IMG/VR virus record: IMGVR_UViG_3300049811_000165
Coordinates: 1 to 63,478 of that record
Length of the DNA stretch: 63,478 nt
Strand: one strand, 5' to 3'
DNA from: a virus
Of the stretch, positions 3,891 through 63,478 are shown one piece after another. Under the pieces are notes generated by a model that did not search any database, was not told the DNA's origin, and saw nothing but the letters and a program-made list of their open reading frames with translations. Numbering within the stretch: the stretch's first letter is position 1; each line of letters begins with the position of its first letter. Position numbers and translations under genes: made by a program.

Positions 3891-4373
3891 TTACAGCTCG
3901 CCCGCCTCTTCGAGAGCGAGCAGCACGGCCATCACCTCTTCGAGGCCATCGTCGACCGCAGCCTGCAAGGTAGCAGGGGCAGACTTAGTTGGAGCAACCC
4001 GCACAGGTTCTTTCGCCTGCGGCACGAACTGGTAGACCGGCTGGATGACGTTCCCAGCCTGGGTACGATCGTTCCCTGATTGGGTACGATCCTCGATTCG
4101 CGAATCGCGAAGACTCTCGATCTCGACGGTGACCCGCTTATCAAGTGAGGCTTTACTTGCGGGCCGCTTGTTAAACTTACGGGCCGCGTTATTTGAGGAT
4201 CGCCGCGCGCGGGCCTCCTCGATGACGCGCCACTTGTCGAGCACGCGCTCGACCAGATCCCCGCCGCCGCCGTGGTACTCCAGGTCGAGGGTGGGCTGGG
4301 GCGTGACCTCTTGCTCGACGCCGAACAGGCGCCCAGCGAACAGCTTGCCCGCGAAGAGCTGGCCACGGAACAC
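3891..4373 (-). CDS. Hypothetical structural-module protein
   Basis: 160-aa ORF. It carries short internal tandem repeats (FAGKLFAGRLF; DRTQSGN/DRTQAGN, encoded by a 21-bp x2 repeat at 4051-4092). Confidence 0.55.
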   Translation of the reverse strand: MFRGQLFAGKLFAGRLFGVEQEVTPQPTLDLEYHGGGGDLVERVLDKWRVIEEARARRSSNNAARKFNKRPASKASLDKRVTVEIESLRDSRIEDRTQSGNDRTQAGNVIQPVYQFVPQAKEPVRVAPTKSAPATLQAAVDDGLEEVMAVLLALEEAGEL

Positions 4374-4374
4374 G

Positions 4375-4983
4375 CTATGCCCCGTCCGCCACGACGGAGA
4401 TCCGGTTGCCCGCCTCGTCGAAGGTGGCCACGATGCGGTCCTTGTCGTCGGCCGCGCTGCGATACCGCTCGGTCGGGGTGCCGATCCCGGTCGTCTTGCC
4501 CAGGATGCCGGCGCGGATCACCGCGATGGCTTGCTCAGCCGGGACGCCTTCGAGCAGGTAGGCCCAGGCCGCCGCCGCGTTCTGCTCGGCCGTGGGCGCG
4601 CTGCCACCGCCACCCGTGGCCACGGTGATCGCCTGCACTGGCTGCTGGTAGTTGATCCGCACGATGAAGCTGCCCACCGTGTTGATGAACGGATCCCCGC
4701 CGCCGTCGACCAGGAGCACGCCGTCGCTCACGTTCAGCGTGTGGCTGGCCTCCTGGGGCCGCACGCGCCAGCCATTGAGCAGGAAGGCGTAGATCGGGAT
4801 CGAGGTGCCCGAGCCCGGGTCGATCGGGTTGCCGCCGACCTGGGCCATCGCGGGCAGGTACTTGGAGTTGTCGCCGGTCAGGGACCAGTCGACCCATCGG
4901 CTCCAGAGATCGCGCACCGACAGCGCCACCGTCCCAGATGACAGGATGATGCGCTTGTTCGGGCCGTCGAAGGTGATCGCCAC
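4375..4983 (-). CDS. Conserved podovirus tail-appendage-associated protein (function unknown)
   Basis: 202 aa. The motif LWSRWVDW...DNSKYLPA...GGNPIDPGSG..IPIYAFLLNGWRVRPQEASHTL.V.DGVL..DGGGDPF recalls proteins encoded beside tail-fibre genes of T7-like marine phages. This is from memory only. Confidence 0.5.
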   Translation of the reverse strand: MAITFDGPNKRIILSSGTVALSVRDLWSRWVDWSLTGDNSKYLPAMAQVGGNPIDPGSGTSIPIYAFLLNGWRVRPQEASHTLNVSDGVLLVDGGGDPFINTVGSFIVRINYQQPVQAITVATGGGGSAPTAEQNAAAAWAYLLEGVPAEQAIAVIRAGILGKTTGIGTPTERYRSAADDKDRIVATFDEAGNRISVVADGA

Positions 4984-5002
4984 GTGGCCTCCTCACCCCG
5001 CC

Positions 5003-6361
5003 TTAGGCGAGGTAGCCCCGGTCTTGCTCGGCGGTCAGCGTGAAGGACAGGCCCTTCGAGCGCGAGATGGTGCCCGTGGCCACCACCGGCTTCGCACTGC
5101 CGGCGTTGCCCGCCACGATGGTCACGGCCGCGTCAGTGCCGGCGGTGCGCCCGCCCTGCACGTTGCCGTCGTAGTCGAACGAGAAGGAGATGGCCGCACC
5201 AGTGATGGCCCCCGTGATCGGGTTGCCGTCCTTGTCGTTGACCGTCACCGCGCCGCTCTCGCCGTAGTCGTTGGATGCTCCCGGAAGAGTCGTGAAGTAC
5301 ATGCGGAAGTAGCCCGTGCCGCCCGCCGTGAGGAAGGAGTTGAAGTTGAGCGTACCGGCCGCCGCGTAGGGGTAGGTGCGCTGCACGCTGTTCTGGTCGA
5401 GGAAGACCACGCGGTTCAAGTCCGCCGGCAGCACGCCCTCGATGAACACGCCCTGCGTGGTGTAGAGCGTGTCGCCCACGAAGTAGCAGAGCTGGCCCTC
5501 GGTCTTGCCCGTCACCGAGCCGGCGCCCGCGTCGATGTCGCTGTTCTGGCGCAGCAGGTACTGGACCTTCGTGTAGACCTGCTCCAGCGTCCCGCCGTTG
5601 GCCTGGATGATCTTGCGGAACGGGTACGAGCCCCCGCCGATCGTCTTGTTCTGGTCGGTCCCGTAGTAGGTGACCGTGATCCCGCTGTAGGGCGCGCCGC
5701 TCATGGCCGCGTCGTTGGCGGTGATCTTCAGGTCCGAGCCCACCGAGACGGGCAGCGAGACCTTGTACGCGCCGGTCCCGCTCTCGCCCACGTCGCCCAG
5801 CACTGCGTCGTCGTAGGTGTAGTTCGGCTCGCGGCAGAAGAGCTTGAAGTAGGTGCGGGTGTCGAAGTTGCCGTTGCTCGCGTCACCGAAGACCTGGATC
5901 GCCTCATTGGGCGCGTCGGTGAAGGTGAAGTTGACGGCCGCGCCGCCCGCCGCGCGCTGGTAGTAGAACTGGGCGCCACCAGGGAAGCCTGAGGCGAGCG
6001 CCACGATGCCGACGTACTGGCGATTGAGCACGCCCACTGCGCTGAACTCGGACCAGCCCGCGTCTCGGATCATCTGGCGCGTGGTGTCATCGGCCGGCTT
6101 CCACCCGTTGAACGTGCCGCCCGGATCCTGGCCGAAGATGTACTGGCCCGAGCGAGCGTCCAGGATGTTCATGGGGAACGGGTAGGGCTGGTAGGTCGAC
6201 AGCGTCCACAGGTCGACGAACTTGGCCCACAGCGCGTTGCCCGTGACGCCATCCTTGGCCACGAGGTTGCCCGCCGCCACCAGGGTGAAGGTGCGGGCCG
6301 GGAGGTTGAACGTGATCTCGGTGCCTACGTTCAGGTCATCTGGGTCGATGATCTTGGGCAT
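5003..6361 (-). CDS. Virion structural protein, putative tail appendage component
   Basis: 452-aa ORF, Gly/Thr/Asn-rich and beta-type, co-oriented and tightly packed with 4375..4983 and 6370..8943. Confidence 0.5.
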   Translation of the reverse strand: MPKIIDPDDLNVGTEITFNLPARTFTLVAAGNLVAKDGVTGNALWAKFVDLWTLSTYQPYPFPMNILDARSGQYIFGQDPGGTFNGWKPADDTTRQMIRDAGWSEFSAVGVLNRQYVGIVALASGFPGGAQFYYQRAAGGAAVNFTFTDAPNEAIQVFGDASNGNFDTRTYFKLFCREPNYTYDDAVLGDVGESGTGAYKVSLPVSVGSDLKITANDAAMSGAPYSGITVTYYGTDQNKTIGGGSYPFRKIIQANGGTLEQVYTKVQYLLRQNSDIDAGAGSVTGKTEGQLCYFVGDTLYTTQGVFIEGVLPADLNRVVFLDQNSVQRTYPYAAAGTLNFNSFLTAGGTGYFRMYFTTLPGASNDYGESGAVTVNDKDGNPITGAITGAAISFSFDYDGNVQGGRTAGTDAAVTIVAGNAGSAKPVVATGTISRSKGLSFTLTAEQDRGYLA

Positions 6362-6369
6362 GTCGTCTC

Positions 6370-8943
6370 CTACACGAGGTACGCCCGGTCAGCCACCTGG
6401 GCCACCGGGAGGGAAGCGTTGCTGGTGCCGAGGGCGAGCCCCCGGATGAAGTACGGGATGTAGCCGGCAGCGTAGACCGCGATGTCCACGGTTGGAGTGC
6501 CCTCGTAGTTGAAGGCGTAGGTCGTGCCCCCGCCATCGCGCGAGTCGAGCACGGTCTCGGTGCCGGCCGTCAGGACCACCACGTCGGACCCAGCCACGAG
6601 CCCGGTGAGGGTCAGCGTCGCGGTGTCGAGCGCGTACTGGTACGCCTGGGTCGTGGTCGTGCTGGTGGTGAGCACGTAGACCGAGGTGATCGCCGTCGTG
6701 TTGGTCGTACCCGTGGTGATGCGCAGCTTGAGCTTGAAGCCCTTGAGCGCGTCGATCCCCGTCAGGGCGTTCAGGTCGGTGCCGAGCTGGGCGGCCGTGC
6801 GCTCCGCGCTCCATGCACTGAAGCCGGCGCCGTCGTTCTTGTCGATCTGGAAGGCGTAGGTGTAGTTGCCCGCCGTGCCGCCCGCCATCACGAGCGCCGA
6901 GTTCTGGAAGCCGGCGTGGCCGATCCGGTACTCGGGCATGGTGAAGGTGGCCGTCATGCCGATCGTGGGCATGTACAGGCGGCCAGCGGCAGTGAAGGCC
7001 GCGCCACCCGTGAGCGCCACCTGGGCGGCGGTATCGGTGGTGGGCTCGTTCATGAGCACGCCGATGCGCCCAGCCGTGGTCGAGGTGTGCGAGTCGAACC
7101 AGTGCGAGCCGTAGCACGCGGTCTGCGCCGTCATGGCGTGGGTCATGCCCAGCCCGGCCTGCGACACGTTGAGCATCGGGGTCACTGGCGCGTCGGCGTA
7201 GTCGCCATGCAGGTCGCGCAGCAGGACGCCCTTCGAGCTGTTGTCGCCCGAGTACAGGGTGGTCCGGGTGTTGGCCACGTAGACCCGCTTGACCTCGACG
7301 GTCTGCGCAGCGGCGCCGGCCGCCAGGACCAGGACGGTGCCGGTCTGGTTGGCCGAGCCCAGGCTGAGCTTCGAGGCGTAGGTGCCGATGTTGCGCAGCT
7401 TGATGTTCGCGCAGCCCGCCGCGCCGATGTTCAGGATCGCGTTGTAAGGCTGCTGGTTCGTGAGCCCACCGAAGGTCAGCCCGCTCATCGTGATGTTCAG
7501 GCAGTTGGACGCCAGATCCCACACCTGCATCCCGTTCGTGGTGCCCGTGGCCGCGCTCGGCGTGTCGTGGTAGATCGTCCCGGTGTAGGTCACGTTCGTG
7601 CAAGTGGTCAGGAGATGGCGCCCGCAGCCGATCGTGCAGTCGACGAAGGAGGTGTTGGCCACCCGAGTCAGGGTTGCCGAGCCGGTGGTGGCGTTGCCGC
7701 GCGCCACGCGCGAGGTGGAGTAGGTCCGGGTGAAGGTGAAGCCCGAGATGTCGGTGAGCGACATCACGTAGCGGCCCGAGGCGGCGAGCGTGGCCGAGGT
7801 CCACTTGCAGTCGGTGATCGTCCCGCCCGCGAAGCACAGCGACATGCTCAGGCCGAACTGGGCGTTGGCCGCTTCCTGGCCCACGCACACCCGAGTCAGG
7901 GTCATGGGCTGGGCCACCTCGGATAGCGAGAGCTGGGTCGAGATGCCCACGTCCGTCATGACCACCGAGTACGCCTGCGAGATGGACGGATACCAGTTGA
8001 GCAGGGCGCGGTCGATGTCGATCACGCCACCGCCCGTGGTGGTGAAGTCGTAGCGCGTGGCCAGCGTGGCGTTGGGCAGGGCGTTCGTGCCGCGCGCGGC
8101 CGTGGTGCAGACCGCAGTGAGGATGTTGGGGATGCGGATCTTGCAGCCCGCAGCCGGGACGTAGCCCACCGTGTTCGTGCCGTCCGAGCCGAACCGCAGC
8201 ACGCCAGCGGTCGAGGCCCAGCACACCTTGCCCTGCACCGCGTTGGTCGCAGTCGAGGCAGCGGCCACGAGGGATCCAGCGCACGGGTAGGGCTCGTAGA
8301 CCCCAGAGCCGGGCGCGGTCTCGACCCATACCGCCGGGTAGTATTGGACCGAGCCGTTCGTGGGGAGCTGGTAGGTCGTGGCGCTCGATCCGCTGGTGGA
8401 TCCCACCTCGAACCAGTCGCCCCGCACGCGGAAGGTGCCCAGCCGGTTGCAGTTGATCGTGGCCAGCTCGTCGCCGACCAGCTCGATGAAGCCGGCCACG
8501 TCCGCCCCGGTGGCGCTGGCCGAGATACCGGTCAGGGCTCCAGCCGCGAAGGCGCCGCCCGTGACCTGCTTGACCGTGATGAAGCCGGTCGCAGGCATGG
8601 CCGCCGCTGGCGCAGTGGGGGTCGCGTTGATGGCGCTCTGCACGCGAATGAGCTTGCCGCTCACCCCGCCCTGCGAGATCACTGTGCCATAGGCCGGGAC
8701 GTTGCCACTACCCCCGGTGTAGGCGATCTGCCTCACCTGGGTCGTGTTGATCTCGATGTCACCGCCCTTCGAGGCGTTGATGGTCATCGAGCCCATCGAC
8801 AGGGCTGCGCCACCGCCGACACCGTAGCGGGTGTCCTGGTCGATGGTGAACTTGAAGCCGTTCGTGTCGACCGTGTCACCCCCCGTGCGGGCGGGGGACA
8901 GCGCGTCGACGTTCGTGTTCGCTGAGAGGACGTAGGCGGTCAT
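6370..8943 (-). CDS. Beta-helix tailspike / depolymerase-like protein
   Basis: 857 aa, rich in Thr/Gly/Ala/Asn with recurring short beta-rung-like segments (e.g. NITMSGLTFGG, NIKLRNIGT, VMTDVGIS). This is typical of right-handed parallel beta-helix receptor-binding proteins. Confidence 0.5.
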   Translation of the reverse strand: MTAYVLSANTNVDALSPARTGGDTVDTNGFKFTIDQDTRYGVGGGAALSMGSMTINASKGGDIEINTTQVRQIAYTGGSGNVPAYGTVISQGGVSGKLIRVQSAINATPTAPAAAMPATGFITVKQVTGGAFAAGALTGISASATGADVAGFIELVGDELATINCNRLGTFRVRGDWFEVGSTSGSSATTYQLPTNGSVQYYPAVWVETAPGSGVYEPYPCAGSLVAAASTATNAVQGKVCWASTAGVLRFGSDGTNTVGYVPAAGCKIRIPNILTAVCTTAARGTNALPNATLATRYDFTTTGGGVIDIDRALLNWYPSISQAYSVVMTDVGISTQLSLSEVAQPMTLTRVCVGQEAANAQFGLSMSLCFAGGTITDCKWTSATLAASGRYVMSLTDISGFTFTRTYSTSRVARGNATTGSATLTRVANTSFVDCTIGCGRHLLTTCTNVTYTGTIYHDTPSAATGTTNGMQVWDLASNCLNITMSGLTFGGLTNQQPYNAILNIGAAGCANIKLRNIGTYASKLSLGSANQTGTVLVLAAGAAAQTVEVKRVYVANTRTTLYSGDNSSKGVLLRDLHGDYADAPVTPMLNVSQAGLGMTHAMTAQTACYGSHWFDSHTSTTAGRIGVLMNEPTTDTAAQVALTGGAAFTAAGRLYMPTIGMTATFTMPEYRIGHAGFQNSALVMAGGTAGNYTYAFQIDKNDGAGFSAWSAERTAAQLGTDLNALTGIDALKGFKLKLRITTGTTNTTAITSVYVLTTSTTTTQAYQYALDTATLTLTGLVAGSDVVVLTAGTETVLDSRDGGGTTYAFNYEGTPTVDIAVYAAGYIPYFIRGLALGTSNASLPVAQVADRAYLV

Positions 8944-16981: not shown

Positions 16982-17689
16982 TCAGGCGGTGCGCCAGTTG
17001 GCGGCCTTGTGGCGCGCCGTGCGCTCGCGTGGCCGGGTGCGGCCGTAGCGCCGGGCCATCATGGCGTAGCGTGACGCGCTGAGCACGTCGTCGCGCTTCT
17101 TGACGATCTGGCCATCCTTGCGGTGGTAGAGGCGGAACTCCTCCAGCCACAGCGGGCAGGTCGAGAACACCTTCCAGCGGCCAGTGAGCATGCGGTCCAG
17201 CATCTCGCTGACGCCCGCCTCGACGCCGTTGCCGCCATCCGGGAAGGTGGCGCGCTCGTCCATCATCCTGAAGCCGTGGGTGCGGTACTGGTTGGCCAGC
17301 TCCTCGCCCGAGCCCTTGTCGTGCTGCAAGCCGTCGTGCGGCCACGCCCAGGGCAGCCAGTCGAGATCCCAACCCGAGAGCGCCACGCGCGCGCCGACCG
17401 GCGCCAGCTCGCTCTGCCTGAAGTCCTTGGTCACGTAGATCACGTCGGTGTCGCGGTCCCACGCGAGGCGCGCCGCCGCGAACGGGTGGTCCCAGCCGAA
17501 GTCCATCGCCCCGAGCTGCACCCAGTGGTCCGGGATCGGGATCGGCTCGATCGTGATGTCGTCCTCGGGCACTTGGCCAAACACCATACCCGAGCCGAGC
17601 ACCGGGAGGCCGCGCGAGCGCGCCAACCGCAGGTGCTTGGGGGTCGACGCCAGAAGCTCGCGCTTGGTCTTCTCGGACAGGTGGGGCAC
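16982..17689 (-). CDS. terL: Terminase large subunit, C-terminal nuclease half (separate ORF)
   Basis: 235 aa with a GTG start. LSEKTKRELLASTPKHLRLARSRGLPVLGSGMVF is the typical ATPase-nuclease linker. It is followed by RNase-H-like acidic motifs GAMDFGWDHP, PWAWPHDG and DDVLSASRYAMM. Confidence 0.85.
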   Translation of the reverse strand: MPHLSEKTKRELLASTPKHLRLARSRGLPVLGSGMVFGQVPEDDITIEPIPIPDHWVQLGAMDFGWDHPFAAARLAWDRDTDVIYVTKDFRQSELAPVGARVALSGWDLDWLPWAWPHDGLQHDKGSGEELANQYRTHGFRMMDERATFPDGGNGVEAGVSEMLDRMLTGRWKVFSTCPLWLEEFRLYHRKDGQIVKKRDDVLSASRYAMMARRYGRTRPRERTARHKAANWRTA

Positions 17690-17734
17690 GTCGTCACTAG
17701 TCCCACCCGGCCATGACGAGGTAGCGACCTTCGC

Positions 17735-18256
17735 CTACTTCAGGCATGTCGCACTCCTCGTCATGGCACAGGTGGGTTCCTTGCTTCCTTTGCGCATGTT
17801 TTCCCTCGCGGGTAGTAGCGAGAGGTTCCACCACACGTGCAACCCACCCCTCGACAGGGGCTGCACGTGGTCGACATGAACGTCGACGCCTGACTGCTTG
17901 TATGCCACCGCGAGGGCGTAGATCGTGTTGATGATCTCGCACCTCTTGTATGGCGTGGCGGCCCGCTGCGCGGCCTTTCTCACCCGCTGCAACTTCGCCT
18001 TGTTTGCCTTGGCCTCCGGCTTCGCCCGGGAGCGACGAGCCTGTTCCTTGACGCGCCCTGGATTATCTTGCCTCCACTGGCGGTTGGCTTCGGCGCTCGC
18101 CTTGCGGTTTCTCGTCTCCCTGTCGCACACCTTGCAGTACGAGTGCAGCCGCGCCGAACGCTTCCCCTGGCCGGTGGTGTAGGCGTACTGGTGGAACTCG
18201 CCCGCCAGCTTGACCTCCCCGCAGCGCGGGCAACGCTTGGTGGCCGCGACGCCCAT
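17735..18256 (-). CDS. HNH endonuclease (paralogue of 19465..19935)
   Basis: Start at the ATG at 18256 (TGATG overlap). It has N-terminal CPRCG...CKVC Cys pairs and a C-terminal VDVHVDHVQPLSRGGLHVWWNLSLLPARENMRKG HNH motif. Confidence 0.8.
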   Translation of the reverse strand: MGVAATKRCPRCGEVKLAGEFHQYAYTTGQGKRSARLHSYCKVCDRETRNRKASAEANRQWRQDNPGRVKEQARRSRAKPEAKANKAKLQRVRKAAQRAATPYKRCEIINTIYALAVAYKQSGVDVHVDHVQPLSRGGLHVWWNLSLLPARENMRKGSKEPTCAMTRSATCLK

Positions 18257-18696
18257 CAATTTAGCTCTCCATGCGGGACGAAGTACGCAGCCTCTCGGCC
18301 GCCGTGGGCGCGGCGCCACTCGGCGCGCTTGGCGTCAGCCCCACGAATGGAGCCGACCACCCTGTACTCCGGGGCAGTCCCGACCACCAGCACGAACAGG
18401 TCGTCGTCCGAGTCGTCGTCGCGGACGATCAGCTCGTACTCCGGCTTGGAGCGAGTCCTGATCTGGACGCCGCCGGCAGAGTCCTCGCCCTTGAAGGAGT
18501 TGACCGACCCCGGCCAGAAGACGCCGACAGCCTTCGAGTACGCCAGCTCGCCCAGCGCGCCCTCGATATGCAGTTGCCAGCCGCCAGCCGCAGCGCCGTG
18601 TCGGTCGGACCGGCCAGCCTTGAGCGACGAGACGTGCCGCAGCACGCCGACGTTGGCCGCCATCACCATCTCGGCGGGCGTGAGGGTCACCTTCAT
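18256..18696 (-). CDS. Conserved phage protein, possible PD-(D/E)xK-type nuclease fold
   Basis: 146 aa. Its ATG overlaps the TerL-N stop (ggaATGAag), and a strong AAGAAGGAG SD sits inside the TerL-N 3' end. Pattern: GW.LHIEGALGELAYSK...D..GGVQIRTR...LIVRDDDSDDDLFVLV. Confidence 0.5.
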   Translation of the reverse strand: MKVTLTPAEMVMAANVGVLRHVSSLKAGRSDRHGAAAGGWQLHIEGALGELAYSKAVGVFWPGSVNSFKGEDSAGGVQIRTRSKPEYELIVRDDDSDDDLFVLVVGTAPEYRVVGSIRGADAKRAEWRRAHGGREAAYFVPHGELN

Positions 18697-19475
18697 TCCA
18701 TCTCCTTCTTGGCCTCTTCGGAGAACTGCTGAAGCAGCTCGCCCGGCAGGAAGAGCATCACGGTGTCGCTGGCCCCTTCGAGCGGCGTGTAGGTCATGTA
18801 GACGATCCCGTCGACCGTTGCCGTGCGGATCTTGCACTCGTCGTAGACCTCGACCGGGGGCTCCTCGTCGAGCCAGATCACGTGCTTCTCGGTGCCCTCG
18901 AACGCGCCGCGCCCCTGCTGGTAGCTCTTCAGGCCGAGCTTGGACCAGAAGCCCGAGATGTGGCGGATCATCACCGTGTCGGCCAGATCCTGCACGCCCT
19001 GCTTCCAGGTGATGTCGCCGATCGCCTCGCGCGGCACCAGCCCGCTGCCCGAGAAGGTCTTCTTGCCCTCGCGGTACGTCACCTTCCCGAAGAGCTTCGA
19101 CTGCACGATGTCGCGGGTCGTCTCGTTGGTCTTGCCGGCCGCCCAAGCCTCGATCTCGTGCGGGAAGCGCCGCCCGGGCCACCACTTCGGATAGTCGCCG
19201 GTCAGGTGCTGCACGGTCTCGTAGCCACCCGCGCCCTCGGTCTTGCCGATCCGGTTGGCCGCCATGAAGCACCGCTCACGGTAGCTCGCGCCGGCCTTGA
19301 AGAACTCCATGTGCTTCGGGTACAGCTCGCGGCGCAGCGGCCCGGTGTCGGGGTAGTAGCTCTTGATCCGGTTCGAGTTCTGGGCGTCGTACTGCTGCTC
19401 CAGGAGGCGCACGAGCTGTATCTTCTCCTCCACACTCAGCCTGCTGAGGTCGAGGTTGCCGAGATCATGGGTCAT
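18693..19475 (-). CDS. terL: Terminase large subunit, N-terminal ATPase half (separate ORF)
   Basis: 260 aa. It has a Walker A-like FMAANRIGKTEGAG, a Walker B HVIWLDEEP and the coupling motif VYMTYTPLEG. It ends ...FSEEAKKEME* where intact TerL proteins continue into the linker. Confidence 0.85.
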   Translation of the reverse strand: MTHDLGNLDLSRLSVEEKIQLVRLLEQQYDAQNSNRIKSYYPDTGPLRRELYPKHMEFFKAGASYRERCFMAANRIGKTEGAGGYETVQHLTGDYPKWWPGRRFPHEIEAWAAGKTNETTRDIVQSKLFGKVTYREGKKTFSGSGLVPREAIGDITWKQGVQDLADTVMIRHISGFWSKLGLKSYQQGRGAFEGTEKHVIWLDEEPPVEVYDECKIRTATVDGIVYMTYTPLEGASDTVMLFLPGELLQQFSEEAKKEME

Positions 19476-19935
19476 GGCGCGCGCCCTTGGCTAGGTTCAC
19501 CTTGGCCGGAACGATCGTCAGGTTCTCGTGCACGTGGAGGCCAGTGACAAGCCGCCCACGCAGCGGAACCACATGGTCAACGTGCACGTCACACCCGGCT
19601 TTCCTCCACGCCCCAGCGACGGCGTACACGGCCGAGATGACGCCCTTGTCCGCCCACGGCGGAGTGCACGAGTGGCGATCGGCGCGGTAGCGCGCGGCCC
19701 ACGCGCAGACCTTGTCCCTGTTCTCGCTCCGGTACCGGCTCATCTGGGCGAGCCGTGCGTCCTTGTTTCGCTCGTAGTGGGAGTGTGACCGGGAGGCCAT
19801 CTGCGGCAGGATCTCGCCCCTCTTTGCGGCGTACCGAGCCCGCGCCTGCGCGAGCTTCTTCTCGCGATTGGCGAGGTAGTAGGCCCGCTTCTTCGCAAGA
19901 ATCTCGTCCCGGTGCCGCTCGTAGTAGCTATTCAC
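19465..19935 (-). CDS. HNH endonuclease
   Basis: The probable GTG start at 19935 overlaps the TerS 3' end. It has repeated basic R..YY..N..K segments, then CDVHVDHVVPLRGRLVTGLHVHENLTIVPAKVNLAKG. Confidence 0.75.
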   Translation of the reverse strand: MNSYYERHRDEILAKKRAYYLANREKKLAQARARYAAKRGEILPQMASRSHSHYERNKDARLAQMSRYRSENRDKVCAWAARYRADRHSCTPPWADKGVISAVYAVAGAWRKAGCDVHVDHVVPLRGRLVTGLHVHENLTIVPAKVNLAKGARHDP

Positions 19936-20584
19936 CCTTGCCCCCCTGCGGGGCTGGCAGTTCTCCCTCTTCCTTCTTCTCGGGGGTGATGCCCTTGAGC
20001 TTGGCCAGCAGAGCGACCAGCCGGGCATCAGCCTGCGCCTCGGACATCTGGGGCAGGGGCTTGTTGCCCGAGGTGAGGTCCAGCTTCTCGCCGTAGGCGC
20101 GGGGCTTGAACTTGGCGATGATCCACTGGAGCGCGTTGATCCGGGTGCGCTTGTCCTGCACGGCGCCCGAGTCGTACTGCCCGAAGATCGTGAGCGGCAC
20201 CGGCTCGGCCGAGAGCTGGCGCAGCTCGGACATCATGGCCTCGGCCGCCATCTCCCGGGCCAGCTCGTAGGCTCGCACGCGGGTCTCGTCCTCTTCCATC
20301 CAGCGCAGCACGCCGCTGGCATGGGTGCGGGTGAGCTTGCCGGCGCGCGAGCGGGGCTTGCCGGTGGCGGCGATGTGGTTCTCGTCCAGCTTGGCGGCGA
20401 TGTCGCGCAGCGAGTACCCGTCGATGATCGCGTTCATCACCTCCTCGGCATCGAGGTTCTTCACCTCGTGAGCGGTGATGTCGAGGGGCGGCATGGTGCG
20501 GTAGGGCACCGCCTGGGGCGGCGAGCCACCGCCGTCCAGGTGCTCCTTCATGATTTTCTCGCGAGTCTTCTTCTGCCCAGCCAT
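19928..20584 (-). CDS. terS: Terminase small subunit
   Basis: 218 aa from the ATG at 20584 (TGATG overlap with the upstream gene). It has an HTH-like N-terminal part and DKRTRINALQWIIAKFKPRAYGEKLDL, a typical TerS motif. It sits directly upstream of TerL. Confidence 0.75.
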   Translation of the reverse strand: MAGQKKTREKIMKEHLDGGGSPPQAVPYRTMPPLDITAHEVKNLDAEEVMNAIIDGYSLRDIAAKLDENHIAATGKPRSRAGKLTRTHASGVLRWMEEDETRVRAYELAREMAAEAMMSELRQLSAEPVPLTIFGQYDSGAVQDKRTRINALQWIIAKFKPRAYGEKLDLTSGNKPLPQMSEAQADARLVALLAKLKGITPEKKEEGELPAPQGGKGE

Positions 20585-21042
20585 CACTTCACCTTCACGA
20601 AGTCGACGCCGCCGGTCGAGGCGTCGGTGTGTACGTTGGCCAGCTTCACGGCGCGCCACGCCGTCGTCCCAGCGGCGATCGCTCCCAGGGCGAACTCGGA
20701 GCCCGCGCCGGCCGTGATCGGCGCCTTGACGGGCAACCAGTCGCCCATCGGATTGACGGCCCAGCACTTGCCGGTGCCGACCTCCGCCACGATCGCCAGG
20801 ATCCCCGAGCCGCTGGAGTAGCCGTAGCCGGAGCAGTCCGGGAACGCCTCGCCCTCGAACAGCGCCTCGGCCGCACGCTGGCAGAAGAACGAGTCGCCCG
20901 TGAAGGCGGCCACGAAGTCCCGGAAGCCGCGCCCCGGGATCTTGCCCCGGTGCAGCTTCTTCACCCCCTTGATCCAGAGGGTGCCCGAGCACGCGGCCCG
21001 GTCCACCGCCAGATACCGCCCGTCGAATGCGATCGTCGTCAC
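20584..21042 (-). CDS. Ntn-hydrolase of the proteasome beta / HslV type
   Basis: GTG start at 21042, 4 nt after GGAGG, gives fMet-Thr-Thr-Ile-Ala-Phe-Asp-Gly (compare HslV MTTIVSVRRNG). IKGVKKL aligns with the HslV Lys33 region, AAFTGD with AGFAGG, and AGAGSEFALGAIAAG with AIGSGGPYAQAAA. Confidence 0.6.
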   Translation of the reverse strand: MTTIAFDGRYLAVDRAACSGTLWIKGVKKLHRGKIPGRGFRDFVAAFTGDSFFCQRAAEALFEGEAFPDCSGYGYSSGSGILAIVAEVGTGKCWAVNPMGDWLPVKAPITAGAGSEFALGAIAAGTTAWRAVKLANVHTDASTGGVDFVKVK

Positions 21043-21107
21043 GTTGCCTCCTGGTGTACCAATGAACTCCCCAACGGCAGTGTCGCACCCCCTTGGGTGG
21101 TTGGAGG

Positions 21108-21166
21108 ATTTCACATCGTGAAACGCCATCCCACGACACGGAACGCTGCGTTTCACATCGTGGAAT
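21108..21166. promoter_or_regulatory. Two copies of the 18-bp motif ATTCCAC-N3-GTGAAACG (inverted pair) in the late/early divergent region
   Basis: Site A at 21108-21125 is ATTTCACATCGTGAAACG, with a palindromic core TTTCAC-atc-GTGAAA. Site B at 21149-21166 is CGTTTCACATCGTGGAAT, whose reverse complement is ATTCCACGATGTGAAACG. Confidence 0.6.
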
Positions 21167-21388
21167 GGACCGACCGTTCGTCGGCTGTGGCGTTGTTTTT
21201 TTGGTACAGATGGTTGCCAGGGGCTTGACGACCCTCCATTCGGCGCCCAGGCTTCGTCTCAAGCACCGCAGCCCGGTGTGAGTCGGCCCACGGATAGGTA
21301 GCAGCGGCCCCAGATCAGCGGGGAACCAGCGCAGGCTACTGAAGCACGGCAGAGATGCTGGTTCACGGGATACCCGATACCCTTCAAG

Positions 21389-21447
21389 CACGGCCCGGGC
21401 GAAGCTATGGGGCCGTGACCAGAGCGCGTTCGATGAGCACGCTCTGG
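21389..21447 (+). promoter_or_regulatory. Two adjacent perfect 8-bp hairpins in the leader of the early operon
   Basis: The hairpins are CACGGCCC-N13-GGGCCGTG (21389-21417) and CCAGAGCG-N13-CGCTCTGG (21419-21447). They sit 60 nt upstream of the ATG at 21507, and neither has a U-tract. Confidence 0.4.
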
Positions 21448-21506
21448 CGGCGAACGAGGCGGCCGAGACAGCCTCACACGTGGATATCACCATCTGAGGA
21501 GGCATC

Positions 21507-28869: not shown

Positions 28870-29300
28870 TCCCCCTTCTGGTTGGCCCGTAGGGCTGCGT
28901 TCTCGCCCTCAAGGGCGCGGATCTTGCTGGACATCTCGGACAGCAGTTGCTCGAACACGGTGATCACCGCGTGCTCCTCGCCCGTGACCTTGTCGTCGTA
29001 CTTCTTGGCCTGGAGCGCGGCGTCGATCAAGGGACTGAGCACCACGTGCATCAGCTCGTGGATCACCGCCTCTTCCACCTCGGCCGGGCCGGGCTCGTCG
29101 CCCCAGCTCTTGCCGATCTCGTAGCGCACGAGCCGGTGCTCGGGGTAGATCGAGACGTTGGCGATATCCCCCGACGGCCGGCGCCGGCCCTTGACGAAGC
29201 GCCAGCTCTTCAGGTGCAGGCGGCTGCGCCACTCGGCCAGCAGCTCGCGGAAGCGGGCCACGTCGGCGTCGGTGATCGGGTGGATGATCTCTTTCTTCAC
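28866..29300 (-). CDS. Putative zinc metallopeptidase (HExxH)
   Basis: 144 aa, containing EEAVIHELMHVVLSPL (HELMH). The GTG start overlaps the upstream stop. Confidence 0.45.
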   Translation of the reverse strand: MKKEIIHPITDADVARFRELLAEWRSRLHLKSWRFVKGRRRPSGDIANVSIYPEHRLVRYEIGKSWGDEPGPAEVEEAVIHELMHVVLSPLIDAALQAKKYDDKVTGEEHAVITVFEQLLSEMSSKIRALEGENAALRANQKGE

Positions 29301-29995
29301 GTGTCACCTAGCTGGGTGTAGGGCGGAAGCGACTTGCCCTCGAACTGGTCTGCCAGGGCCGCCGTCCGCGCGTTCAGGTCGTCCATGAAGGGCACCGAAG
29401 CCGGCGGGCGATCGTCATGGAACTTGCCCTGGATCATCGCGTCACGCAGCACCGTGAGCGAGGTGAGCGCCTTGGTGATGTGCGACAGGCCGCTTCCCGG
29501 GTCGATGTCTTCGCCCTCCCACCACGAGAACAGGTGGCGCATCGCCGCGTCGTAGTAGACCGAGGCGCGCACGCCGATGGCGCGGTAGTTGTGGCGTCGG
29601 TACTTGTGGGCGCCTTCCTGCATGGCCACACCCATCTCCAGGAGCACGGTCGCCGGCACACACGACATTGGCGCCTTGCGGACACCGATCGAGTCCTTGG
29701 GGTTGGATTCCTTGATCGAGGCGGCAGTGGCTGGCGGCTCCTTGACCAGCTTCTCCACGTCGCCAAGGGTAACCTTGGTGCCAGGAGCGCCCACTGTGTC
29801 GTAGCGGAATCTGGGGGCGCTGGCCCAGACCCCATGCCGCCACGTCAGGTCCGTGACGTGGCGCACGCGGACATATGTCGTTTTCTTGTCCAATTCGTAG
29901 ATGATGTAACGGTCGCCGGCCACCAGCCCGGAATGGCCCTGGCTGTCGACGCAGATCACCGTGTCGCCCACCTTGAAGTCGTCGAAGGTTTTCAC
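29297..29995 (-). CDS. SH3-like N-terminal domain fused to a dATP/dGTP pyrophosphohydrolase-N (DUF5664-like) domain
   Basis: The C-terminal half is NPKDSIGVRKAPMSCVPATVLLEMGVAMQEGAHKYRRHNYRAIGVRASVYYDAAMRHLFSWWEGEDIDPGSGLSHITKAL. This matches the pattern NPKD..G..K....P......GA.KY...NwR......Y.dA..RH...W..GED.D..SGl.H. Confidence 0.55.
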   Translation of the reverse strand: MKTFDDFKVGDTVICVDSQGHSGLVAGDRYIIYELDKKTTYVRVRHVTDLTWRHGVWASAPRFRYDTVGAPGTKVTLGDVEKLVKEPPATAASIKESNPKDSIGVRKAPMSCVPATVLLEMGVAMQEGAHKYRRHNYRAIGVRASVYYDAAMRHLFSWWEGEDIDPGSGLSHITKALTSLTVLRDAMIQGKFHDDRPPASVPFMDDLNARTAALADQFEGKSLPPYTQLGDT

Positions 29996-30339
29996 GGCGC
30001 CACCCCCAGGTCTTGCGGGAACAGATACTCGACGGGGATCGCGCGCGCCTTGCAGAACTCGATCTCCGCCTGGACACCCTTCGACTCCTTCCAGCCGTTG
30101 ATCAGGAGCACGAGCATCTGGTCGCAGTGCCGAAGGATCGCGAAGTCCTGCTCCAGCCAGAAGTCATGGTCGACGGAGCTGCCAATGAGCTGCCCGATGC
30201 GGTGCGAGTGGGCGATGGGAGCGAAGACCTTGTGGCCACACTTCATCAGGACGCCAGCGGCGGCGCACGCCAGCTCGTAGCGGTGGTGCATCACGTCAGG
30301 ATCGGGGTGCGAATACGGACTTGCCAGATAGGTAAGCAT
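29992..30339 (-). CDS. DUF1937-type protein (nucleoside 2-deoxyribosyltransferase-like fold)
   Basis: Start moved to the ATG at 30339, which has an AGGAGG SD. MLTYLASPYSHPDPDVMHHRYELACAAAGVLMKCGHKVFAPIAHSH matches the DUF1937 signature YLASPYSH...R......L...G....SPI.HSH. Confidence 0.55.
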   Translation of the reverse strand: MLTYLASPYSHPDPDVMHHRYELACAAAGVLMKCGHKVFAPIAHSHRIGQLIGSSVDHDFWLEQDFAILRHCDQMLVLLINGWKESKGVQAEIEFCKARAIPVEYLFPQDLGVAP

Positions 30340-30379
30340 TGGGCGCCTCCTTGCGCTCGGGGTGAAGCGATGCTTGCTG

Positions 30380-30769
30380 TTACGGGTACTGCTTGCGGTC
30401 CAGCTCGAAGTGGGGTCCATCCTTGAACGTGCGCCAGTCACCTCCCCAGGTGATCTTGACGCCAAGGTCCGACGCCGCCGCCTTCACGATGTCGGCCAGC
30501 TTCTTGTAGAGCGGCCAGTCCCACCGCACATCACCCCAGACCGTGACCGCGAGGTCGACGGCGTGGCCGGTGAGGTGCCGGCTGTTCATGGTCCGCGTAG
30601 CGCCGGCCTCGAACAACTCCTTCTGCCGCACCGGAGACCGCAGCCCCTCGGTCACGATGAACCCGATGCCCTCGGTCATGTCGATCCTGTCGGCCGCCGC
30701 GTAGATGACGCGCCCGAGGTCGGGATGCACCCCGTACATGGCCTTCTGCGAGCGTTCAGAGAGGATCAT
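30380..30769 (-). CDS. Endolysin, peptidase M15 (L-alanyl-D-glutamate / VanY-type)
   Basis: 129 aa. The zinc ligand pattern is SRHLTGHAVDL ... DGPHFE (H..D...H). Its size is typical, and a holin-like gene lies upstream with an ATGA overlap. Confidence 0.75.
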   Translation of the reverse strand: MILSERSQKAMYGVHPDLGRVIYAAADRIDMTEGIGFIVTEGLRSPVRQKELFEAGATRTMNSRHLTGHAVDLAVTVWGDVRWDWPLYKKLADIVKAAASDLGVKITWGGDWRTFKDGPHFELDRKQYP

Positions 30770-35323: not shown

Positions 35324-35341
35324 CGTTTCACGATGTGGAAT
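35324..35341 (-). promoter_or_regulatory. Copy of the 18-bp motif upstream of the helicase operon
   Basis: The plus strand reads CGTTTCACGATGTGGAAT and the minus strand ATTCCACATCGTGAAACG. It lies 77-94 nt upstream of the ATG at 35247. A TATACT -10-like hexamer (minus strand, 35280-35275) lies 43 nt downstream of the motif. Confidence 0.55.
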
Positions 35342-35706
35342 TTCGATCGTCGCGGGCGCAAGGCAAGCCAAGGGGGTGAAGGGGCCACCGCCCGCCTCTG
35401 CCGGGGTGCCCGGCTCGGGCCTCGCTCTCGCGCGACATTCCTCTTCCAGCGGCCCCACTTAACTCCGGGAGGGGTGTCCCCAGACTTCACTCATTTCCGC
35501 TGTTCGTGTGGTCCCTGTCGAAGGCCACTGCGCCGGCTTGCCAGTAAGCGCACCCGGTTTTCTTCCACGCCGGCCCAGGCTTGGCCGCTTCCTTACGGTG
35601 TGGAGTACCGTCGATCGATTGCGACCCGTCGGGTTTACCGCGAGTCATTCATGGGGGTGGCACCATACACCCAAAACCGGCGAGTGCGCAACTGAGTCGT
35701 GCCGGC

Positions 35707-35743
35707 ATTCCACATTGTGAAACGCATTCCACATTGTGAAACG
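35707..35743 (+). promoter_or_regulatory. Two tandem identical copies of the 18-bp motif upstream of the Cro-like/recombination operon
   Basis: ATTCCACATTGTGAAACG occurs at 35707-35724 and again at 35726-35743, a 19-bp period. The pair ends 88 nt upstream of the ATG at 35831 and is followed by TTGCGA-gg-TATTGC. Confidence 0.6.
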
Positions 35744-40790: not shown

Positions 40791-41038
40791 TGGAAGACCC
40801 GCTCACCCCGTCGCTGCTGCGCCTTGCGATCGACACCGCGATCAGGGGCGACACCATGACCTTCTACGCCGAGCGCGACTGGGAGCCCGGGGCGGGCTTC
40901 CCGGGCTACAGCGTGCGGTCGACGGGCGGGCTGCTGCCCGACTACAAGATCATCGAGTGCGACCCGTTCGACCTCGTGGCCTACCTTGTCGACGCCGGGG
41001 TGGGCAAGAGCATGCCCATCCCCGTTCGTCGCCTATAG
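40790..41038 (+). CDS. Hypothetical protein (82 aa)
   Basis: Start moved to the ATG at 40790 (TGATG overlap). Its stop overlaps the stop of the convergent giant gene within CTATAG (41033-41038). Confidence 0.55.
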   Translation: MEDPLTPSLLRLAIDTAIRGDTMTFYAERDWEPGAGFPGYSVRSTGGLLPDYKIIECDPFDLVAYLVDAGVGKSMPIPVRRL

Positions 41039-51349: not shown

Positions 51350-51407
51350 CAGGCCACCTCCAATGAGAGCGACCCATACTACTGCCAGGACTACTGGTTG
51401 GAGGAGC

Positions 51408-63118: not shown

Positions 63119-63444
63119 CAGAGGGCTCCGGTGAAGAGTTGGGCGAAGGCGACCGCGCGCTGCTGCATGGCGTCCTCGTCGTCACGGAACTCCGCCCGCC
63201 CCGTGACGTAGTCGCACAGGGCGGGGAAGTAGGTGTCGTCGATCGGGATCGGGTCCGCCAGCACGTACTCGCCGGCCGGCGCCGTCCACGAGCCCCCGAT
63301 GAACAGGTCCGGCCGCAGCTTGCGCACGGTCAGGACCGCGTCGTTCGCGTAGCCCAGGAGCTGCGGGTCCGGGTAGCGGACCTTGGAGGCGTCGTTGAGC
63401 GGGATCCGCGCGCGGTCGACGACGTTCTGGAAGGTGCGAGCCAT
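63118..63444 (-). CDS. Putative head-tail connector/adaptor protein
   Basis: 108 aa. Sequence: RIPLNDASKVRYPDPQLLGYANDAVLTVRKLRPDLF..., a connector-like pattern. Its 5' end lies in the terminal repeat and is duplicated at 1..93. Confidence 0.45.
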   Translation of the reverse strand: MARTFQNVVDRARIPLNDASKVRYPDPQLLGYANDAVLTVRKLRPDLFIGGSWTAPAGEYVLADPIPIDDTYFPALCDYVTGRAEFRDDEDAMQQRAVAFAQLFTGAL

Positions 63445-63478
63445 CGCTTAGGCGAGCAGCTTCTCGACCAGGGTCTCG
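63352..63478. repeat. Terminal direct repeat, copy 2 (identical to 1..127)
   Basis: It is identical to positions 1-127. It also contains a duplicate of the 3' end of gene 97..453 (63448-63478). Confidence 0.95.

Follow-up and report, generated by a model that had tools for sequence, protein, structure and literature searches.

A probable PPH-type proteasome homolog ahead of the terminase genes of a tailed phage

Introduction

The PPH (phage proteasome homolog) family was described computationally in 2021, when 324 sequences were counted and WP_042125023.1 served as the reference sequence (Fuchs et al., PMC8665760). According to this study, PPH proteins are about 140 aa long and start with Met-Thr without a propeptide. 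They are built on a proteasome-like Ntn-hydrolase beta-sandwich core, carry a catalytic Thr1 (or Ser1), Asp17, Lys33 and the oxyanion Gly47, and have the helices H1, H3 and H4, whereas H2 and the C-terminal S12/H5 are absent. They occur in tailed phages and prophages with no co-occurring AAA+ protein, and no informative gene context was reported. The family radiates from the cluster of BPH (beta-proteobacterial proteasome homologue), which is thought to act without an unfoldase. The authors also allow that some proteasome-like homologs might do without classical double rings, and the same proteasome-like family includes connectase, a monomeric and specific ligase (PMC8665760).

In the literature searched, Rrp (SP_1145) of Streptococcus pneumoniae TIGR4 is the only element-borne proteasome homolog that has been studied experimentally. 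Purified Rrp was assayed on the N-terminal extension of bL27 with no unfoldase added, and the alternate cleavage activity is lost when the rrp gene is deleted (bioRxiv 10.64898/2026.08.10.744006). Rrp is thus a precedent for an element-borne proteasome homolog that acts without an unfoldase. The same search returned no experimentally characterised HslV-like or PPH protein of a phage; the paper on JSS1_004 mentions only the host hslV.

Here we analyse a proteasome-like gene in a phage genome of 63,478 nucleotides (IMG/VR record IMGVR_UViG_3300049811_000165; hereafter the window, meaning the whole stretch). An earlier note on this DNA was aware of no characterised phage-borne proteasome-type peptidase in this genomic position. 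Phage-borne homologs of this compact type are nevertheless not without precedent, given the description of PPH in 2021 (PMC8665760), the protein family PHROG 1040 and the dozens of isolated phages in which the corresponding annotation, 'peptidase HslV family', is found. In itself, the gene brings no biology of a new type.

Results

The gene and its start codon

The reading frame and its ribosome-binding site are located as follows.

20584 to 21042, minus strand: coding sequence of the PPH-type proteasome homolog, 152 aa plus stop
21047 to 21052, minus strand: Shine-Dalgarno sequence AGGAGG, with a 4-nt spacer to the GTG at 21042-21040

The product reads (f)M-TTIAFDGRYLAVDRAACSGTLWIKGVKKL...AGAGSEFALGA...GGVDFVKVK, and its N-terminus from the GTG start is M-T-T-I. 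We accept the GTG, which the earlier note had placed behind a GGAGG, because three independent lines agree on it. A relative that is 91% identical (L003) has an ATG at the same position with the same AGGAGG upstream. GC3 falls from 0.954 within the ORF to 0.605 in the stretch that would extend it upstream in frame (21043-21156). Finally, 117 of 153 family proteins (the cluster of the window protein, the initial hits and the 150 top representatives) start with MTTI, and in nearly all of them the alignment begins at residue 1. An upstream start, which would bury the threonine, is contradicted by the drop in GC3 and by the start of L003 at the same codon. The ORF is therefore a real gene that is initiated at GTG.

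With 152 aa the protein is indeed as short as had been claimed, next to medians of 155 aa for the 153 family proteins and 154 aa for an alignment of 100 sequences. The gene shares its codon usage with the late genes of the phage itself; its GC3 is 0.95, compared with 0.81-0.83 for the HNH genes.

Position at the head of the packaging genes

With its terminase, portal and MCP genes and an end overlap of 127 bp, the window represents a complete phage genome. The gene heads a co-directional minus-strand block of packaging, head and tail genes, and its surroundings contain the following features.

20582 to 20586, minus strand: TGATG stop/start overlap of the PPH gene and TerS, in which the A of the stop TGA (20586-20584) also opens the ATG
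19928 to 20584, minus strand: TerS, 218 aa, the downstream cistron (Sf6_terminase, PHROG 1482)
21043 to 21506, no strand: divergent intergenic region of 464 bp, 5' of the PPH gene, with plus-strand genes from 21507
21109 to 21123 and 21151 to 21165, no strand: palindromic motif TTTCACATCGTG(A/G)AA, present twice, 67-123 nt before the start

The identification of TerS, and with it the claimed adjacency of the two genes, rests on matches to Pfam Sf6_terminase (2.7e-16) and PHROG 1482 (9.5e-15). The overlap of a single base makes translational coupling of the two genes possible, and the gene order PPH-TerS is also found in L003. The intergenic region presumably holds the promoter of the packaging and structural block. 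The palindromic motif looks like an operator from its sequence: it has 7 matches against 0.08 expected by chance, recurs at 35326-35741 and is also conserved in L003. A scan for sigma-70 promoters between 20400 and 21800 gave no consensus match, so the late timing of the gene is something that we infer. Of the description as the "first late gene", the first place in the packaging and structural block is borne out.

Scans of the ORFs against Pfam and PHROG, including all called ORFs of at least 350 aa, detected neither an AAA+ unfoldase nor a prohead protease of the ClpP, S49 or HK97 (S78) type. This agrees with the earlier note, which had seen no HslU-like partner and no prohead protease of these types in the genome. 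The start of the portal gene lies about 9.4 kb downstream of the PPH gene, which itself is upstream of TerS. Moreover, the protein has no match among the PADLOC defence models, and no conserved partner gene was found in the loci examined.

Fold and predicted active site

The AF2 model of the protein (pLDDT 86.7, pTM 0.84) has a proteasome-family fold. In a Foldseek search of the PDB, all top matches are proteasome beta, BPH, Anbu or HslV structures (E from 5e-6, probability 1.00), and the search of BFVD shows that the fold is common to many phage proteins. PHROG 1040 is matched with E = 7e-21. A family profile matches proteasome beta5/beta5i and archaeal beta subunits in the PDB with E of about 6e-9 to 5e-8; for HslV and BPH the values are 6e-8 to 2e-6. 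In these alignments Thr1 pairs with Thr1. The window protein alone has no match in Pfam, NCBIfam or a single-sequence PDB search, so the relationship is visible only via PHROGs, the family profile and the fold search. Pfam PF00227 is matched singly by 29 of 100 family members. From its predicted structure, the gene product is a proteasome-beta/HslV-like Ntn hydrolase, as had been supposed.

The residues of the putative active site are conserved among the 100 aligned relatives. Thr2, the equivalent of proteasome Thr1, is Thr in 97 and Ser in 3, and with the GTG start it would be exposed by removal of the Met, in agreement with the earlier reading. Asp14 (proteasome Asp17) is present in all 100 and Gly49 (proteasome Gly47) in 99, and Asp140 is equivalent to proteasome Asp166. 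The Lys that had been singled out in IKGVKKL is Lys29 in VKKL; this residue is invariant (100/100) and pairs with proteasome Lys33. In the profile alignment, Thr2, Asp14, Lys29 and Gly49 fall on the corresponding residues of proteasome beta5i. The loop AGAGSEF had been called a GSG-type loop. This is right for the G-x-G pattern, as both glycines of G112-A113-G114 (proteasome G128-S129-G130) are invariant, but the middle Ser is replaced by Ala. At this position the relatives have Ser (59), Gly (17), Ala (10) or Thr (9). Ala at the equivalent of Ser129 could lower the activity. Peptidase activity itself is suggested by the conserved residues.

In the model, H1 spans residues 51-63, H3 residues 115-123 and H4 residues 128-137. 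H2 is absent; a non-helical link of 19 residues takes its place, with one helical turn in 64-82, a pLDDT of about 60 in the block 71-80 and the next strand at 83-87. S12/H5 is also missing, the chain stopping two residues past the strand 146-150. In other ring proteases, H2 lies on the face that is presented to partners.

Comparison with described proteasome homologs

The window protein shares with PPH (PMC8665760) the compact size (152 aa compared with about 140 aa), the Met-Thr start without a propeptide and the conserved Thr1, Asp17, Lys33 and Gly47. According to the model it likewise lacks H2 and S12/H5, and it is likewise found in a tailed phage without a partner AAA+. Nothing essential differs; the window copy has the Ala in the middle of the G-S-G loop, and it is the first gene of a packaging operon, overlapping TerS. 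The protein probably does not belong to RPC, because the C-terminal extension is absent. Taking the described features and the match to PHROG 1040 as a proxy for clustering with the reference sequence, we assign the gene to PPH, and this assignment is probably correct as part of the explanation that we favour below. PPH forms a viral branch of the proteasome superfamily. With clusters defined at 50% identity, the family now comprises 9892 clusters at E <= 1e-3 and 5089 at E <= 1e-10, i.e. at least 5089 clusters compared with the 324 sequences of 2021.

One of the best structural matches is BPH (PDB 5ovs, 5ovt, 5ovu; Foldseek E = 5.5e-6), which falls with PPH into group I of the proteasome-like family. 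Unlike PPH, BPH is a cellular protein of about 185-200 aa that has both H1 and H2 as well as a long acidic pore loop and forms a double heptameric ring. Rrp shares the proteasome-like Ntn fold and is located on a phage-like element with terS. It is not a PPH member: Rrp is larger, has extra domains, resembles Anbu and proteasome beta most closely and is of Firmicutes origin, and its bL27-trimming activity has no counterpart in Gram-negative hosts.

Distribution and the slot ahead of the terminase genes

The complete genome of phage DC1 does not contain PPH (best hmmsearch E = 1.4), and no protease is annotated in it. DC1 shares the head module of the window phage, with 49.6% identity in the MCP and 42% in the portal protein. 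The window MCP aligns with that of DC1 from residue 1 and hence has no extra propeptide compared with its PPH-less homolog. The scaffold-like proteins of the two phages have the same length (325 and 329 aa).

In the Ralstonia phages YL1 and QkW1, PPH is inserted between a small ORF and TerL. About 28 Ralstonia phages with 90-94% identical flanks (Gervaise, Claudette, GP4 and others) are without PPH; in Gervaise, a viable isolate whose flanks are 93-95% identical, the PPH segment of about 480 nt is absent. Because relatives that share the head genes or have almost the same flanks do without it, PPH appears to be an accessory and not a core gene.

Among viral loci, about a fifth to a third have a terminase or portal gene directly downstream of PPH, and many of these loci have packaging or portal genes of the P22, Sf6, T7 or Bcep22/933W type. 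When only IMG/VR viral loci with a close downstream ORF are considered, 6 to 17 of the 49 immediate downstream neighbours are terminase subunits (about 12-35%), 4 are DNA methyltransferases and 2 are HNH endonucleases. In other phages, the slot ahead of the terminase is occupied by HNH endonucleases and DNA methyltransferases. In these genome comparisons, PPH lies in a variable slot directly in front of the terminase genes. This position could reflect a functional link with packaging and not a mere insertion hot spot. Adjacency to TerS is not universal, since in the relative contig L002 the PPH gene follows DNA polymerase and primase genes. A jumbo phage carries two PPH-type genes together with conventional prohead proteases.

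Discussion

We consider it probable that PPH is an accessory Thr-peptidase that needs no unfoldase and is encoded in a variable slot in front of the terminase genes. Thr1 would be exposed by deformylase and methionine aminopeptidase of the host, and its hydroxyl, activated via the Lys29/Asp14 pair, would attack peptide bonds, with Gly49 providing the oxyanion hole. The enzyme would act without a dedicated AAA+ unfoldase, because none is encoded and H2 is missing. Lacking an unfoldase, it would process unstructured segments or one specific host or phage target at the time when the virion genes are expressed. Its contribution would be a conditional fitness benefit rather than the building of the capsid.

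PPH might also be a mimic of HslV (ClpQ), the peptidase of bacterial HslUV, its rings docking on host HslU (or ClpX/ClpA) and redirecting ATP-dependent degradation, but this seems unlikely to us. HslV turns up in both the structure and the sequence searches, databases name the family 'peptidase HslV family', and the phages encode the V-like subunit only and never U, which leaves room for a host partner. The two proteins share the Ntn-hydrolase proteasome-like fold, Lys33 and the G-x-G loop, have no long propeptide, and both would expose Thr1 by removal of the Met. However, PPH is about 25 residues shorter and only 13-16% identical to HslV structures, and its matches to proteasome beta and BPH are at least as good. 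The NCBIfam equivalog models for HslV (TIGR03692, NF003964) gave no match to the window protein at E <= 0.1, and a relative scores 23 bits compared with cut-offs of 137-158. No hslU is adjacent, the downstream gene being TerS. Because H2 is missing, the ring face on the H1/H2 side would differ from that of HslV, and together with the unmatched equivalog models this weakens the idea that a host unfoldase is hijacked. The absence of H2 also agrees with the family description, whose authors saw no co-occurring AAA+ protein and placed PPH near BPH (PMC8665760). Moreover, the fold is also found in phages of Actinobacteria, e.g. Gordonia phage Daredevil. These hosts are not known to have HslU.

There is likewise a small chance that the placement upstream of the terminase is functional and not an insertion hot spot, and that PPH is a late, unfoldase-independent processing protease. 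Its target would be a packaging or head component, or else a host factor or defence sensor acting on terminase or portal. PPH would then represent a new class of enzyme on the proteasome fold, serving phage morphogenesis or counter-defence.

A further and quite improbable reading is that PPH is a specific processing enzyme or transpeptidase, like Rrp or connectase, which cuts or joins a single target, for instance a host factor or a terminase- or portal-sensing defence protein. It overlaps with the accessory Thr-peptidase that we favour and differs from it only in the specificity of the enzyme. PPH is expressed with the terminase genes and has lost a helix, some homologs may not form double rings, and connectase shows that a specific monomeric ligase can exist within the proteasome-like family (PMC8665760); similarly, Rrp trims a ribosomal protein from its phage-like element (bioRxiv 10.64898/2026.08.10.744006). 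On the other hand, no candidate target was found, PADLOC models and conserved partner genes gave nothing, and PPH has neither the lid insertion of connectase nor the extra domains of Rrp. Should PPH turn out to be a specific processing or counter-defence protease, its practical interest would lie in being a minimal enzyme of the proteasome type.

A possible parallel is host Prp, which processes bL27 and was first identified by cleaving bacteriophage proteins; Rrp cleaves the same N-terminal extension of bL27 (bioRxiv 10.64898/2026.08.10.744006). This parallel, the missing conventional prohead protease, the co-expression with packaging and head genes (including the overlap with TerS) and the frequent position just upstream of terminase or portal genes would all suit an unconventional prohead protease that replaces the HK97, ClpP or S49 type and cleaves scaffold or MCP during assembly. 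Nevertheless, such a maturation protease, which the earlier note had proposed, is very unlikely, as DC1 assembles the same head module without PPH or an annotated protease, Gervaise-type Ralstonia phages (90-94% identical to YL1 around the site) do without PPH, the MCP has no extra N-terminal segment relative to that of DC1 and the scaffold-like proteins of the two phages are equal in length, the gene lies outside the interval from portal to MCP in which prohead proteases usually occur, it is located among replication genes in L002, and the jumbo phage has PPH beside genuine prohead proteases. Heads of the P22 and T7 type are not known to require proteolysis for maturation, which also counts against this role.

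Two leads emerge from our comparison, namely the preferred slot ahead of the terminase genes and the evidence that PPH is dispensable for capsid assembly. YL1 and QkW1 on the one side and Gervaise, Claudette and GP4 on the other represent a natural pair of cultured phages with and without PPH on the same host genus, which makes the function of PPH directly testable in Ralstonia.

Two further observations concern other genes of the window phage. TerL is interrupted, and a search for a group I intron in Rfam, with gathering thresholds or E <= 1, returned none. The ORF of 3526 aa at 41033-51610 was considered as an N4-like virion RNA polymerase and rejected, since it carries SLT, ART-PolyVal and DUF7178 domains; the N4-like reading is also ruled out by the head genes, which are Bcep22/DC1-like, and in phages of this type the giant gene is annotated as DarB-like.

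Fold, active site and family assignment

We found that the gene at 20584-21042 (minus strand) encodes a proteasome/HslV-like Ntn hydrolase, as the earlier note had proposed, since PHROG, Foldseek and profile matches agree with the conservation of the catalytic residues. The protein itself has no match in Pfam or NCBIfam, nor in the PDB when searched as a single sequence; in PHROGs it matches phrog_1040, 'peptidase HslV family' (7e-21). A confident AlphaFold2 model built from eight homologs (pLDDT 86.7, pTM 0.84) was compared with the PDB by Foldseek, a check that had been called for, and the top matches are all proteasome-family structures: proteasome beta, the beta-proteobacterial proteasome homologue BPH, Anbu and HslV (E from 5e-6, probability 1.00, TM-scores 0.55-0.69). 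Run against the PDB, a profile of 100 family members matched proteasome beta5/beta5i, archaeal beta, HslV and BPH at 6e-9 to 1e-6, with Thr1, Asp17, Lys33, the G-S-G loop and the D-x-x-S-G-G motif in register; 29 of these members match Pfam PF00227 individually. Asp14, Lys29 and both loop glycines never vary across the alignment of the 100 sequences; 99 of them have Gly49, and the second residue is Thr in 97 and Ser in three. The GSG-type loop noticed earlier was confirmed for its two glycines (G112-A113-G114); its middle residue is Ala113, not Ser. Of the 100 relatives, 59 have Ser at this position, 17 Gly, 10 Ala and nine Thr.

The gene belongs to an already described, experimentally uncharacterised phage family, the phage proteasome homologs (PPH). 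Members lack a propeptide, helix H2 is missing uniquely in PPH and its relative RPC, and the C-terminal S12/H5 elements are absent as in other group I homologs (PMC8665760). For none of their new homologs did the same authors see a co-occurring AAA+ protein or an informative gene context (PMC8665760). Compared with the features given in that paper, the window protein shows every PPH trait that could be checked. In the predicted structure, H1 (51-63) is followed by a short non-helical link at the H2 site and then by H3 and H4, and the chain stops directly after the last strand. The earlier note knew of no characterised phage proteasome-type peptidase in this genomic position; indeed, our literature searches turned up no experimental work on a PPH protein, but the family had already been described and annotated in phages.

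PPH proteins are far more numerous than the 2021 description suggested. A profile search returned 9892 clusters (50% identity) at E <= 1e-3 and 5089 at E <= 1e-10; the 150 top matches are almost all 135-200 aa long and start at the catalytic Thr. At least 74 phage genomes in sequence databases carry a homolog, among them those of Seuratvirus, of jumbo Erwinia and Salmonella phages, and of Rhizobium, Klebsiella and Providencia phages; many of the homologs are annotated as 'peptidase HslV family'. Genome papers have remarked on the absence of HslU or listed this annotation among the phage proteins. Moreover, BFVD holds many phage proteins with the same fold.

Start codon and operon position

20584-21042, minus: PPH ORF, stop included; GTG at 21042, 152 aa, N-terminus M-T-T-I-A-F-D-G
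21052-21047, minus: Shine-Dalgarno-type AGGAGG, 4 bases ahead of the GTG
20586-20582, minus: TGATG overlap of the PPH stop and the start of the small terminase subunit gene (TerS), the A of TGA being the A of ATG

The stop-to-stop frame extends upstream to 21258, and its longest ORF begins with a GTG at 21156. We place the start at 21042 because the closest relative, IMG/VR contig L003 (PPH protein 91% identical), has an ATG at exactly the equivalent position behind the same AGGAGG, because GC3 is 0.954 within the ORF and 0.605 in the in-frame extension 21043-21156, and because 117 of 153 family proteins begin with MTTI, nearly all aligning from residue 1. The GTG start with Thr at position 2, as first suggested, is thereby borne out. 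The close linkage to TerS also stands: the downstream gene is TerS by Pfam (Sf6_terminase, 2.7e-16) and PHROG (1482), and the genes overlap by one base. We take this overlap to be a matter of operon packing; it does not prove a functional link.

The window represents a complete phage genome: the 127 bp at 1-127 recur unchanged at 63352-63478, which makes the contig a circular assembly of 63,351 bp. PPH is the first gene of a long co-directional minus-strand block, followed by TerS, an HNH gene, the large terminase subunit gene (TerL), small ORFs, the portal gene, four ORFs of no assigned function, a scaffold-like acidic protein, the major capsid protein (MCP) and, over the contig ends, tail genes and a 3501-aa polyvalent protein. 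By their head genes, the phage resembles Bcep22/DC1 (Lessievirus) and Gervaisevirus (identity to Burkholderia phage DC1 49.6% for the MCP and 42% for the portal), and the terminase is nearest to that of EBPR podovirus 1. By codon usage PPH is native to the phage, with a GC3 of 0.95 like TerL, the HNH genes having 0.81-0.83.

We examined the neighbourhoods of 71 non-redundant PPH-bearing IMG/VR loci. Among the genes up to 2.2 kb downstream of PPH were members of the TerL families Terminase_6N (7) and Terminase_3 (6), of TerS families (8) and portals (12). Immediate downstream neighbours (n=49) included 6-17 terminase subunits, a range given since one protein may have several PHROG matches, four DNA methyltransferases and two HNH endonucleases. 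Upstream lie helicases, RusA, NinB/NinG, lysozymes and sigma-like regulators, and in another relative contig, L002, PPH follows DNA polymerase and primase genes. A position just ahead of the packaging genes is hence recurrent, not universal. As a rough estimate, a terminase gene follows a random gene in ~3% of cases. The slot ahead of the terminase is a variable cargo slot, well known for the company of HNH, methyltransferase and nin-region genes, and the neighbours of PPH are this same company. A functional link between PPH and the terminase genes is conceivable.

Possible roles of PPH

Pfam or PHROG scans of the called ORFs, including all of at least 350 aa, gave no ClpP, S49 or HK97-type protease and no AAA+ unfoldase, in line with what had been noticed at first; the only P-loop proteins in the scanned ORFs are TerL and an SF2 helicase. 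PPH could thus be taken for the missing head-maturation protease, as the earlier note considered, but several observations disfavour this. The complete genome of DC1 has the same head module, no PPH (hmmsearch, all filters off, best E = 1.4) and no annotated protease either. The MCPs of the window and DC1 align from residue 1 of both, and the scaffold-like proteins have 325 and 329 aa, respectively, so that no added removable segment is apparent. Conventional prohead proteases occur beside two HslV-family genes in a jumbo phage. Moreover, the Ralstonia phages YL1 and QkW1 have a PPH (36% identical to that of the window) directly upstream of TerL, whereas about 28 Ralstonia phages, including Gervaise, Claudette, GP4 and Alix, have matching flanks at 90-94% nucleotide identity; in Gervaise the ~480-nt PPH segment is missing between the same small ORF and TerL, and tblastn with the YL1 PPH matched no further Ralstonia phage. 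Gervaise-type phages are viable isolates, therefore PPH is dispensable for assembling this type of virion. Across phages it is an optional cargo gene.

It is also unlikely that PPH is an HslV-type peptidase using the host HslU, the AAA+ unfoldase of HslUV. The HslV equivalog models do not pick up the window protein, its identity to HslV structures is 13-16%, proteasome beta and BPH match it at least as well, and its model lacks helix H2; PPH-fold proteins are also found in BFVD in phages of hosts that are not known to have HslU. The wider proposal that PPH hijacks a host unfoldase is a weak one.

Thr is a permissive second residue for Met removal, and E. coli HslV matures in the same way. In PPH, Thr1 would be exposed by host deformylase and methionine aminopeptidase and would serve as the nucleophile with the Lys29/Asp14 pair, the oxyanion hole being formed from Gly49. 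We infer a peptidase that would need no dedicated unfoldase and would attack either unstructured segments or a specific target while the virion genes are being expressed. Fold, active site, start codon, operon position and dispensability are established by the data above; the activity and its timing are predictions. An experimental precedent is Rrp (SP_1145), a proteasome homolog encoded by a phage-like element: it trims the ribosomal protein bL27 at its N-terminal extension, and the assay of purified Rrp on bL27 contained no added unfoldase (bioRxiv 10.64898/2026.08.10.744006). Rrp, however, is of a different, larger subfamily. The gene is of interest mainly for the question of its role and for the YL1/Gervaise pair, which makes that role testable.

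Further features of the genome

16982-19475, minus: interrupted TerL gene, two parts in different frames
~17702-18713, minus: TerL insert, ~1 kb, holding the next two ORFs
18259-18696, minus: 146-aa ORF, no family match, kept in L003
17735-18319, minus: HNH-type ORF, absent from L003
19465-20028, minus: HNH-type ORF, 187 aa, HVDHVVPL...HVHENL motif, between TerS and TerL

Residues 3-239 of the contiguous 480-aa TerL of EBPR podovirus 1 correspond to ~18714-19445 and residues 249-467 to ~17021-17701. Rfam gave no group I intron here; the gene could be a split TerL or contain an unrecognised intron. The 187-aa HNH ORF overlaps the TerS 3' end, has a lower GC3 (0.83) and is missing from the 91-97% identical relative L003; it looks like a recent homing endonuclease insertion. 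The TerL of Gervaise (L087 885-3224, 779 aa), annotated whole as 'terminase large subunit', contains an intein-like insert of ~266 aa (…RQRGF|C…VSHN|S…). YL1 TerL has 513 aa without it and is otherwise 96% identical.

2310-2381, minus: tRNA gene (Rfam, 48 bits), between a 77-aa ORF (PHROG 717) and the MCP gene
3891-8943, minus: four ORFs of 857, 452, 202 and 160 aa, between the portal and scaffold-like genes
41036-51538, minus: giant ORF, 3501 aa, with SLT transglycosylase, ART-PolyVal (ADP-ribosyltransferase of polyvalent proteins) and DUF7178 domains
within 29300-30465, minus: ORF with a dATP/dGTP diphosphohydrolase N-terminal domain (2.2e-25)
within 29300-30465, minus: adjoining DUF1937/nucleoside 2-deoxyribosyltransferase-like ORF (1.9e-18)
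21109-21165: two copies of the palindromic motif TTYCACAWYGTGRAA, upstream of the PPH/packaging block
35326-35741: three further copies, in or near the other divergent regulatory region (~35.3-35.7 kb)

PHROG gave no match for the four ORFs, nor did Pfam for the 857- and 452-aa ones; in DC1 the portal, scaffold-like, CsrA-like and MCP genes are contiguous, whereas in the window the four ORFs intervene. The giant ORF encodes a polyvalent virion protein comparable to the product of the 'DarB-like' giant gene in DC1 and Bcep22, rather than an N4-type virion RNA polymerase. The pair at 29300-30465 may be a nucleotide-pool or DNA-modification module. The motif TTYCACAWYGTGRAA has seven matches, with 0.08 expected by chance, and is kept in L003; it looks like a putative operator of a phage regulator tying both regions together.
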